This document shows, piece by piece, positions 22,101 to 64,000 of a DNA stretch of 64,000 nt. Positions within the stretch are counted from its first letter, which is position 1. Every line of letters begins with the position of its first letter. The notes under the pieces are model-generated. The model was not told the origin of the DNA. It saw only the letters and a list, made by a program, of their open reading frames with translations, and did not search any database. The stretch is taken from positions 25,550,401-25,614,400 of the forward strand of contig CM120641.1 in NCBI GenBank assembly GCA_051362555.1, given 5' to 3'. The position numbers and the translations under genes are program-made. This DNA comes from Lingula anatina. Lineage: Eukaryota > Animalia > Brachiopoda.

Positions 22101-25100
22101 TATTGAAACATGTTTTGTTTTATTTCACAGTTTAGTACCTTCTCAATGATTGCTCTAGTTGTAGGAGTGTTAGGAGCAAATGGAATCTTTCCTCTCAGCA
22201 AAGGTTTGATGTAGGACCAGATGACAGCGCCACCTTTCTCCTGTATGACATTCATGTACATATCCTGACAGAATCCACCTAAAAAAAAGAGAAAATAGTG
22301 CCATATAATATCGAGACTAGCCTCTGCATATAATGTGCTCTATAAAGCACATCATAGATAAACCAACTAAAACATTTGTTTATTATCTGTGCTCAGCTTG
22401 AATGATGTATTGATAATACATTAACAGTAAAAACAATCAAGCACTTGCATAGTAATTTATTTGTTCATTGAATGATTTTATTTTAGGTTACAGGTTGATA
22501 TAGGTCTGTATTACATATAAATAATAATAATAATAATAAACATGGGATAAGTAACATCATTGGTAGAAAAAAATGTTATTTAAATAATTTGGAAAAGTTT
22601 TCAAAATGAGAAATTACCAGGCAGAGTGGCTTGTTCTTTCTCCATCTCTTCCGTGGGGATACCAGAAGTGCCAGGGCTGGTCAGTTGGAAGACATCATCA
22701 AGTTTTAACTGCGTGCCGCAAATAATGGACCCCATTGATGTCAATGCAGACGTACCTAGAACCAAAACATAGTCAAATATGTTGTAATAGGTGCAAATAG
22801 AGCAGTGTTGCATGCCACAAGGAATGGCAAAATAAAATCTTTTATACAACCATTATTATTTTCACAATTTCATATTTAATCTGAATATATCATACATTTC
22901 TGTTTCATATACAGGAACAAAACCATCTGCAACTTCAGATTTTTTCAAGGCACTACATAATATTGTATGAACAAAGGTGTTAATACCTTGTTTTCAAAAC
23001 AGAAACTTATACGCCAAAAGCAATATACTCATAGCAAAATGAAGAAACTATAGTTAATTTATCATTCAAAAAACACATTAGTTGTCAAAGTGTCATTCTC
23101 AAATATTCAGTGTCCATTAAAAAAATATGCAAAGATAAGCAGCATCCATCCAACATAAAGCAGGTCACTCACAAAATTAGATTATTTTCAGACTTTTCAC
23201 TCTTCCTTCTGATATTGATGAATAATTTTTTGCAATTCTCTGTCAGATGTAAAACATCTCTCTTCCATCACATAAAGACTTTTTGACCAAGACGGACAAG
23301 GTGAAAAACTAAATCAAGAGCTTTGCAGACATGTAAACTATGAAAATATTGTGTATTAGTTGAAATTTTGTTCAGATGTTGATTAATAAATATTCAATAT
23401 TGATTCATTGTCAACAAGGCTATGCTGAGAAATGTCATGTTGATTCAATGTTGAAGATAGGTTGACATGACATCAACATTGGCCTGACATTGATTCAACA
23501 CTGAACTTTGAACCCCCTTCAGAATTCTCTTTATTTGTTAGATGAGGATTGATTAAGGATTTGAATTTGTTTTGCTTGTTATAATATTCTAACAGTGAAT
23601 CAAAAAGGATTAAACACAAGCTCCTGTAGAAAAGCACAGAGTCAATACCTGGATACCCATTTAGAGTTAAGTTTAATCCAGTGGTTGGAGTTGGAGAGGC
23701 TGAAGGACCTAATAAAATAAGTGATAATGGGAGTAAAGACAGTAAAGTCACACAAGATCAAACCAAGCATGTTACCAGGTTAAGGAAAGGAAAGCAAAAC
23801 ACTCAAAGTGAAAATGTTAATAGTATGAAGTTAGTACTACATGTAAAGCAAAGTAAAAAAGCTATTATAGGAAAACAAAGACAAAGCACACCATGAGTGA
23901 ACATGTTAATGTACAGATCTACAAACAAGTAAAAGTAAATGCTTTGGGGAGGAAAAAAAACATATTGGATAGACTCTTAGGAAAAAACACATTGGAAAGA
24001 CTCTTAAGAAAGAAAGAAAAGAAAGTTTAAAAGAAAACAATTTAAAACACCATAGTTAAATGTTCATACTTGGAAATGCAGCACTGTCATCAAAGGCAGC
24101 AAAGTCTGCTGGAAGGCTTGCAGTCAGGTTGGCAAACCCTCTGAATGCACTTTCCAGTGTGGCCTTAGTGGCCTCCACGTTCTTCAGGACTCTCTTGATA
24201 TTTTCAGTATCGGTCGTACTTGGCAGCACACTATCTATACCAGATGCAATAAACTGAAAGAAAAATCTTCATGTTGACTGAGTTTGCATGATAATACTTC
24301 TGGTAATTGAAAAAATGACAAACTGGAGTTTTGCATTGTTGTTTTACCATATAAATTTCAACAGCTTTAGTACTTGTAGTTGCATTTATAGAGTACATCA
24401 AAAACCCAATGTGCACCACAAAAATACATTTGTTCATATACTCTATTAAGTTTTATGTTTCTGTGGCATCTTGACTTCCCCATTTTCCTGGGCACTCTTG
24501 CAAAATTTTGAAATTTGGTCAAAGATTTAATTTTTACTAAGTTAAACTTTATGACATACTGATGAGCAATATTTCTAAATAATATCAAACTTTAAAAAAA
24601 AACTTTTTTTAAGCATTTGGTGTTATTTCATATTTCACAAAGTGGTTTTCATAGTTATCAGATGCCTTATAACACATCAGTGTTTCTCTGAGAGACTACA
24701 ACATACCTGTTTCACCATCTCTCCTACACCCAGTCTCAGCAGTAAGTTCTCTGTGATGTTAGCCACCAGGTCCTTACTGATGGCGCACATGGCATTGCTC
24801 ACATCCGAAGAGGTCACTGTCGTAGAGTTGATCAGGATCAGGGAGCCGAGTTGGTCTGGGTTACAGAACAGTTCCTTAATGTCTTCAGGAGACATATTCT
24901 TGCTTGCATTGTACAGCTGCAATTGTAGAAGGAAATGTGTGATTACTCCCTGAATTTAACTTGAAAGTTTTTCACACACTATGAAAATATAAAGAAAGCA
25001 AAAAAGAAAAAGCATGCACTTCAGCAATATTAGTTTAATCAGTTAAGTTTATCAATGTCATGTGACCCATAAGCATGGAGGCCCTGGGGGGGGGGGGGGG

Positions 25101-64000: not shown

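Follow-up and report, generated by a model that had tools for sequence, protein, structure and literature searches.

The gene and its transcript

The stretch of DNA considered here, which we call the window, comprises 64,000 nucleotides (nt) from the brachiopod Lingula anatina (GenBank assembly GCA_051362555.1, contig CM120641.1, forward-strand positions 25,550,401 to 25,614,400), and it contains a single minus-strand gene for an ABC transporter of the ABCA type. The first extracellular domain (ECD1) of the encoded protein holds 18 cysteine-pair units of a two-cysteine, four-exon module of about 220 amino acids (aa). A self-trained exon finder applied to the minus strand gave an initial chain of 106 exons and 5,835 codons with 0 stops. 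The finder was trained on the window itself, with a control training on the ABCA core alone, and this control recovered 58 of the 63 repeat-region exons exactly and without frame breaks; thus, finding the repeat exons did not depend on having trained with them. Three weak exons were removed from the chain, namely two mini-exons at the window ends (at 63961 and 61) and a mini-exon at 23699-23649 that was contradicted by RNA reads, and one acceptor was shifted by 9 nt. The corrected model has 103 exons and 5,793 aa, is stop-free within the window, and places about 4,190 aa before the second transmembrane segment (TM2). The lengths given in the original prediction (at least about 5,830 aa in total and at least about 4,200 aa in ECD1) were slightly too high. 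Mini-exons at 15264, 10444, and 10054 were retained, but they are weak and rest on the gene model.

Four raw-read RNA-seq runs carrying the same species label were aligned to positions 19750-39749 of the window, a span that contains modules 13-18 and the gateway exons; for modules 1-12, the basis is the gene model together with the relatives. Among the joints listed, 18 of 18 agree with the corrected model, two of these fits being model corrections that were themselves derived from the reads, and at least 18 of the 27 introns in the span are covered. The joints link modules 13-18 to the ABCA1-like gateway exons of the transporter core, and one of those listed (24916/30756), which crosses a transposon-bearing intron described below, is present in two reads of a single run. 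The stranded run X1 places transcription on the minus strand, and 32 of the 40 read-versus-genome differences listed are silent, as are 21 of the 24 listed inside the array. Runs X7 and X9 show fixed differences of several percent from the window and so represent a distant population or a sister species; their junctions agree with the model. These data show that the gene is real and expressed, and that it forms one spliced transcription unit with 18 modules, of which modules 13-18 are tied to the core by reads. A giant ABCA protein encoded by one gene, as had been proposed, is therefore upheld, and junction RNA-seq, which had been named as the check for a single transcript, gave a positive answer for the part that joins modules 13-18 to the core. 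It must be weighed against this conclusion that the junctions of modules 1-12 lie outside the read-checked span and that TM1 lies outside the window. The array also runs past the window end and, given that the first module in the window matches the second modules of relatives, about 420 further residues (the N-terminus and one module) are probably encoded upstream.

The core exons match ABC_tran, ABC2_membrane_3, and the ABCA1/7/4 structures, and from ECD1 onward the domain order is that of ABCA full transporters (TM1-ECD1-TM2-6-NBD1-R1-TM7-ECD2-TM8-12-NBD2-R2, with NBD for nucleotide-binding domain and R for regulatory domain). All of these features lie on the minus strand. The C-terminal, non-repeated part of ECD1, with the tunnel, base, and gateway (19770-24253), is identified by ABCA matches and reads. 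It is followed by TM2-TM6 of the first transmembrane domain (TMD1; 16758-19001; gene model and domain matches), NBD1 (11234-13161), TM7, ECD2, and TM8-12 (4519-8844; gene model, outside the read-checked span), NBD2 (1516-3591), and regulatory domain 2 with the last coding exon and its stop codon (564-1157; gene model). Domain and motif scans found an intact Walker A, signature, Walker B, and H-loop in each NBD. The core aligns end to end with relatives bearing ABC2_membrane_3, ABC_tran, and R1_ABCA1, its gateway region is conserved with respect to ABCA1, and the later segments of ECD1, which make up the tunnel and base, occur in a single copy. A predicted furin-type R-K-K-R site (20438-20449) lies just before the strand leading to the gateway, in a loop outside the aligned ABCA1 stretch, which starts at residue 546. 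Sites of the form R-x-K/R-R occur in 36 of the 48 invertebrate members with the anchor (five further invertebrate sequences without it were left out) and in 8 of 24 vertebrate ABCA12, ABCA13, or lamprey sequences, compared with 17 of 4,228 background windows, and they are absent from all eight echinoderm sequences. We found no account of this site in a literature search that was mostly outside subscription journals.

The repeat array

The ECD1 repeat array (24707-63646, minus strand) has 18 cysteine-pair (B) units and 17 near-complete B-C-D-A cycles of 149-247 aa, as defined by the gene model and by hidden Markov models (HMMs), with RNA joints for 24707-39749. Within the cycle, exon B is in phase 0-0 (174-219 nt, n=16), exon C in phase 0-2 (173-263 nt, n=16), exon D in phase 2-1 (116-155 nt, n=14), and exon A in phase 1-0 (92-137 nt, n=14; most commonly 128 nt). 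The cycle is not the strict one that had been claimed, since it is broken by an 898-nt exon that holds D-A-B-C-D-A without introns (46937-47834; gene model and module HMM), by a fused D+A exon of 253 nt that precedes the last B unit (30756-31008; joints in reads), and by a short fused B/C exon of 188 nt in module 16, which has only 149 aa (32916-33103; acceptor joint 33103/33801 in reads). The last B exon, that of module 18 (24707-24916; gene model and reads), is the positional equivalent of ABCA4 exon 6. Regarding the 898-nt exon, open reading frames (ORFs) of other species (P0084, P0112, P0151, and P0017), each a single ORF on a genomic contig, have the same register and end at the same point, and this apparently shared intron-less exon suggests an old loss of several introns, perhaps via cDNA.

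The presence of about 17 to 18 tandem modules was confirmed with leave-one-out HMMs, in which the modules score 19.6-119 bits, each above the best of 100 shuffles (1.5-13.6 bits). In addition, an HMM built from 679 non-window modules, which descends from a window seed, recovers 18 of the 18 window modules at 31-143 bits, while the reversed protein gives at most 5 bits. The mean pairwise identity among the window modules is 16%. Across the family, the cysteine pair is kept in 589 of 629 modules, but the N-x-T sequence after the second cysteine, which had been described as constant, is found in only 335 of 675. The array carries 102 sequons in 3,862 aa, or one per 38 aa, versus 9 in 1,931 aa of the core; 12.5% of its sequence windows have a high helical moment, versus 3.3 +/- 0.7% after shuffling, and a search of the array for a TM-like segment found none. 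Thus, the proposal of a glycosylated, amphipathic-helical array is in agreement with what is predicted from the sequence. The possibility that A and B are sub-repeats of each other was rejected (hhalign probability below 4% for all six exon-class pairs). No Pfam family was found to cover the module when the window exons and relatives were scanned; matches to Pfam and NCBIfam entries (DUF4372, MutL, and others) fell below the cut-off and were taken as noise, and PF26955, which is listed for these proteins, is not the module, as it is also present on module-less Trichinella proteins.

Origin of the module

ABCA4, a human transporter of the eye, has a single lid. According to variant tables (PMC7544654), its exon 4 (c.303-442) has 140 nt in phase 2-1, exon 5 (c.443-570) has 128 nt in phase 1-0, and exon 6 (c.571-768) has 198 nt in phase 0-0, and the D, A, and B exons of the window match these three in phase and size. 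Downstream of the array, two window exons have the same size and phase as exons 9 and 10 of ABCA4 (140 and 117 nt), and one of them matches residues 369-412 of the ABCA4 profile. P0061, a fragment that carries modules but lacks the conserved N-terminus, matches the ABCA4 profile TIGR01257 at 156-296 (E 7.5e-6) and ABCA4 itself at 157-285 (E 0.0034), with C205, C230, and W273 in register. Furthermore, a profile of 11 relatives aligns unbroken to residues 1-263 of ABCA4, and 29 relatives with an N-terminus have cysteines at about 54, 75, 81, 203, and 228. The lid of ABCA4 is described, in the parts of the sources available, as residues 138-271, a region that cryo-electron microscopy (cryo-EM) did not resolve (bioRxiv 10.64898/2026.06.25.734683; PMC8219669).

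Two results speak against this derivation: the profile of the window B exons matches no ABCA chain at E values up to 10, and none of four window repeat pieces matches TIGR01257. Because direct matches of the window to ABCA1 or ABCA4 are absent, the case for homology is built on relatives, position, and exon phases. The profile-HMM check that had been suggested was thus positive for similarity between modules and negative for a direct match of window modules to ABCA1 or ABCA4, and the earlier claim that A+B descends from the single lid segment of ABCA1/4-type proteins, when tested against ABCA4, holds with a link via relatives. Considering all of this, it appears very likely that the unit is the block of ABCA4 exons 4-6 (pre-lid helix, lid with the equivalent of the C205-C230 pair, and post-lid helix) plus a linker, that it was multiplied before the split between protostomes and deuterostomes, and that the modules have been kept by position since. 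We also observed that an ABCA4-like protein of Saccoglossus (P0110) carries a tandem pair of A+B lid units, lacking C and D, at residues of about 140-360; this lid duplication is apparently a separate one, on the ABCA4-like side.

Relatives and age of the array

The B-exon profile found 152 proteins at E values up to 0.001, the top one being a hemichordate protein with 27 matches, and a search with the core among proteins of 3,583-11,403 aa gave 460 matches, 120 of them listed. A refined HMM found 8-29 modules in 46 of 46 invertebrate relatives, which had been picked because modules were present, and 697 module or lid sequences could be aligned across the family. Arrays are found in molluscs, annelids, nemerteans, brachiopods, priapulids, chelicerates, echinoderms, and hemichordates. 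For instance, the giant ABCA proteins of Liolophura (7,098 aa), Lineus (7,432), Aplysia (6,642), Octopus (7,118), Priapulus (6,551), and Ptychodera (6,292, N-terminal part) have the same module, order, and core and are orthologues, differing from the window protein in module count and sequence only. The best matches of the window modules in a nemertean protein are mostly in order, with identities of 19-36%, above the within-protein mean, which argues that the positions in the array predate these phyla. The best 25 core matches are all invertebrate (40-45% identity), and the N-terminal xLxxKN motif and TM1 are present in the records of 29 of the 46 relatives. Four relatives (P0004, P0159, P0190, and P0192) are single ORFs on Logan contigs of 15-20 kb, which supports the idea that one transcript would run from the modules to the core in this family.

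The original prediction also regarded the protein as exceptional in size, and here the data are contrary: 12 of the 26 invertebrate relatives with both an N-terminus and an NBD are longer, lamprey proteins reach 7,548 aa, and the window gene is an ordinary member of a widespread group. The database labels of the giant invertebrate proteins are mostly "uncharacterized" or belong to split records. Public annotation often (for example in P0003, P0006, P0010, and P0158) divides the gene into an "uncharacterized protein" with TM1 and modules and a separate core, and such splitting may explain why the architecture escaped notice. In planorbid snails, the giant protein is accompanied by a short paralogue that has 1-4 modules (P0036, P0088, and P0281). 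Three starfish giant ABCA proteins (P0198, P0200, and P0262) carry a precomputed match to PF00059, the C-type lectin domain. Neither the 898-nt exon nor a hemichordate fragment gave a match in word-indexed homologue searches, which covered targets under about 2,000 aa.

Relation to ABCA12 and ABCA13

Trees of the core were built from 35 rows and then from 28, after dropping 7 redundant or partial rows, and they contained no ABCA1/2/4/7 sequences. The window gene falls among lophotrochozoans (SH-aLRT 100), with ecdysozoans adjacent and echinoderms next to vertebrate ABCA12 and ABCA13 plus lamprey; thus, the tree follows animal phylogeny, with ABCA12 and ABCA13 as the vertebrate members. A 4,022-aa wasp protein in this tree has up to 6 weak modules. 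As for published placements, in one tree the Drosophila protein CG34120 is sister to human ABCA12/13, apart from the arthropod ABCA1/2/4/7 group (PMC3724490), and in another it groups only with ABCA1/2/4/7/12/13 as a whole (bioRxiv 10.1101/2021.03.03.433580). The latter source also reports that it is required in neurons for lipid transfer to glia.

With regard to the outer domain, a profile of the invertebrate array can be aligned with ABCA12 ECD1 across 1,505 columns (score 110.6, versus 38.5 reversed) and with the first ~640 and last ~290 columns of ABCA13 ECD1 (scores of 52-83, versus 34.3 reversed). The ECD1 profiles of ABCA12 and ABCA13 are both internally repetitive, and alignment with the module profile gives 92% for residues 569-712 of fish ABCA12 and 91% for residues 156-292 of ABCA13; with the lamprey protein, this alignment gave nothing clear. 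Like the window protein, ABCA12 and ABCA13 are full ABCA transporters with an abnormally large ECD1 (PMC13161189, in the part available), and they share with the window family a group in the core tree, similarity of ECD1 profiles, and, in 8 of 24 vertebrate sequences, the furin-type site. Unlike it, they have barely recognisable modules and are not among the best 25 core matches, and part of human ABCA13 ECD1 is, to judge from a cited title, encoded by a 4.8-kb exon and not by a four-exon cycle. ABCA4, ABCA1, and ABCA7, which have solved structures with an ECD made of lid, tunnel, and base, share the gateway region and ATPase motifs with the window protein and have a lid region alignable via relatives, but they have one lid versus at least 18, and an ECD1 of about 600 aa versus more than 4,190.

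Several observations count against a common branch with degenerate arrays. A tree without ABCA1/2/4/7 cannot separate an ABCA12/13 branch from those proteins, the middle of ABCA13 ECD1 aligns to the array no better than the reversed control, and with the module HMM a vertebrate ABCA12 or ABCA13 shows between 0 and 3 weak copies, with none in many of them (best 36 bits, reversed control 14.7). Even so, we regard it as probable that the window family belongs to the same branch as vertebrate ABCA12 and ABCA13, and that the large outer domains of the latter are degenerate versions of the array.

Mobile element and satellite in the introns

One intron of the gene contains a Ty3/Gypsy-type retrotransposon with long terminal repeats (LTRs) (25295-30747, plus strand), antisense to the gene and a few bases from a splice donor, which is not part of the ABCA protein and enlarges a 381-nt intron to 5,839 nt. 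It has two identical 98-nt LTRs, which begin and end with TA rather than TG..CA, a 5-bp target duplication, and a plus-strand ORF of 1,659 codons (25396-30375) with reverse transcriptase, RNase H, and integrase. Judged by these features, it is a young, intact-looking element, and read depth over it is low on both strands. Another intron, of 3,177 nt, contains a 146-bp satellite (59917-61486; 10.8 copies, 93% match), accompanied by GC-rich hairpin-like stretches near 59730 and 62380-62500; presumably, this arrangement resembles satellite-bearing non-autonomous elements.

Possible function of the array

The 898-nt exon, which covers 1.5 modules, was modelled from an alignment of 24 sequences (pLDDT 72, pTM 0.49); a single-sequence fold was discarded (pLDDT 42). 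The predicted structure is nearly all helix, with only very short strands, and has a weak joint (pLDDT below 50) at residues 184-188. Foldseek gave no match to the alignment-based model at E values up to 0.001, and a VIA fold search gave generic helical bundles (best Z 5.7 and 3.8); these comparisons are limited in that, in the descriptions available, the lid is not resolved or is poorly modelled in solved ABCA structures. Structural alignments split residues 12-180 and 187-254 into separate blocks, which is weak evidence for hinged units. Lipid conduits of the VPS13/ATG2 type have a continuous hydrophobic groove made from repeated beta-sheet units, in contrast to the nearly all-helical model; as predicted, this fold excludes membership of the module in that group but not a conduit-like function.

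The reading to which we give about an even chance sees the protein as a lophotrochozoan ABCA lipid transporter that likely belongs to the ABCA12/13 branch; its lid copies, at least 18 in number, would form a looped chain of modules holding lipid supplied by the ATP-driven core. By analogy with ABCA1, for which one model among others has phospholipid moving from the outer leaflet via the gateway and annulus into the tunnel (PMC9381790, in the part available), the core would raise lipid from the outer or luminal leaflet through the gateway and tunnel. The tunnel mouth would then pass it to the amphipathic lid modules, and these would either store lipid or nucleate a lipid particle, whether inside a secretory granule or on the cell surface, in the manner of a built-in apolipoprotein. 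We hold this handover for storage or particle seeding more tentatively, at somewhat below even chance. By ABCA topology, in which the ECD base is formed by segments on either side of the lid, the first and the last module would join one common base, and the array must loop back; it would be a loop or hairpin with a reach of at most half its contour length. Lipid handling by the array would be supported by its amphipathic helices without a TM segment and by the conserved gateway, as well as by findings for related proteins, as given in the accessible parts of the sources: a cholesterol-like density in the ABCA1 lid, reported second-hand (bioRxiv 10.64898/2026.06.25.734683), and the need for the long N-terminal region of ABCA13 for vesicle localisation and cholesterol internalisation (PMC7948424). 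It is also known that ABCA12 loads glucosylceramide into lamellar granules (PMC13161189). On the other side, lipid binding or a cavity in the modules is a prediction only, and the ABCA13 deletion result fits a sorting role equally well.

The array could instead be a glycosylated spacer, tether, or sorting platform, in which case lipid would pass only through the conserved base, while the repeats would bind partners, set targeting, or space membranes. We consider this rather unlikely, even though several findings agree with it: ABCA13 without its N-terminal region is mislocalised from vesicles, and its authors speculate on protein interactions (PMC7948424, in the part available); the array is far richer in sequons than the core; module number ranges from 8 to 29, with short snail paralogues (P0036 and P0088); and the joint in the 1.5-module model is of low confidence. 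However, from its topology, that deletion would also remove TM1, so that mislocalisation may be an effect on folding, and the amphipathic helical pattern, the cysteine pair (589/629), and the position-specific identity across phyla exceed what a mucin-like spacer needs. A further alternative, close to the long rod with a continuous conduit of the original prediction, is a rigid stack of modules that encloses an unbroken hydrophobic channel and serves as an ATP-fed lipid bridge spanning a glycocalyx, a cuticle, or a lumen. Each unit does have both of the helices that flank the lid at the tunnel mouth, amphipathic helices occur throughout, and the order of modules is conserved across phyla. Nevertheless, this is improbable in our judgement, and the rod as first proposed is doubtful: a simple outward rod is excluded by topology, since both array ends join the same base, and a channel would necessarily be a hairpin or ring; the tunnel and base segments of ECD1 are single-copy, with only the lid and its two flanking helices repeated; the pTM of 0.49 and the poorly predicted joint at residues 184-188, from an alignment of 24 sequences, do not favour rigid stacking; and modules of 149 and 200 aa break the regular repeat.

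Lastly, the array might lack a function of its own and simply be tolerated as the outcome of exon duplications that are compatible in phase. The four-exon cycle restores phase and is thus freely duplicable, copy number varies, and the vertebrate copies have decayed. Against this, about 11.6 kb of coding sequence has been kept open and spliced, the listed array differences are mostly silent (21/24), and the array is retained across all the lineages given above, from molluscs to hemichordates, so that we find this explanation very hard to believe.

Implications for the ABCA family

The kind of transporter is known, and giant members are already in public databases; the repeat architecture is apparently undescribed, as no description of it was found in the literature searched, which was mostly outside subscription journals. 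This architecture bears on human proteins. In the available text of a 2021 study, the N-terminal region of ABCA13 is said to lack both conserved domains and homology to any known human protein (PMC7948424), and a 2026 review, in its available part, describes ABCA13, with its abnormally large ECD, as a mechanistic outlier (PMC13161189). The invertebrate arrays probably show the building block of that region, with the start and end of its unit, and they offer an origin for it. They also define a soluble module of ~220 aa for expression, structure, and lipid-binding tests, and the 697 aligned natural lid sequences inform the part of ABCA1 and ABCA4 that is still missing from cryo-EM structures and in which many Stargardt variants of uncertain meaning are reported to fall (bioRxiv 10.64898/2026.06.25.734683, in the part available). 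The short snail paralogue beside a giant one is a natural comparison for the contribution of the array. On a broader and more speculative view, which we would back with only limited confidence, the bilaterian ancestor may have had an ABCA pump with an ATP-loaded chain of lid-derived carriers, either a built-in apolipoprotein or a lipid bridge. This chain would persist as plain repeats in invertebrates, and human ABCA12 (harlequin ichthyosis) and ABCA13 (psychiatric risk) would have, in their giant and unexplained outer domains, its degenerate, still-working descendants.

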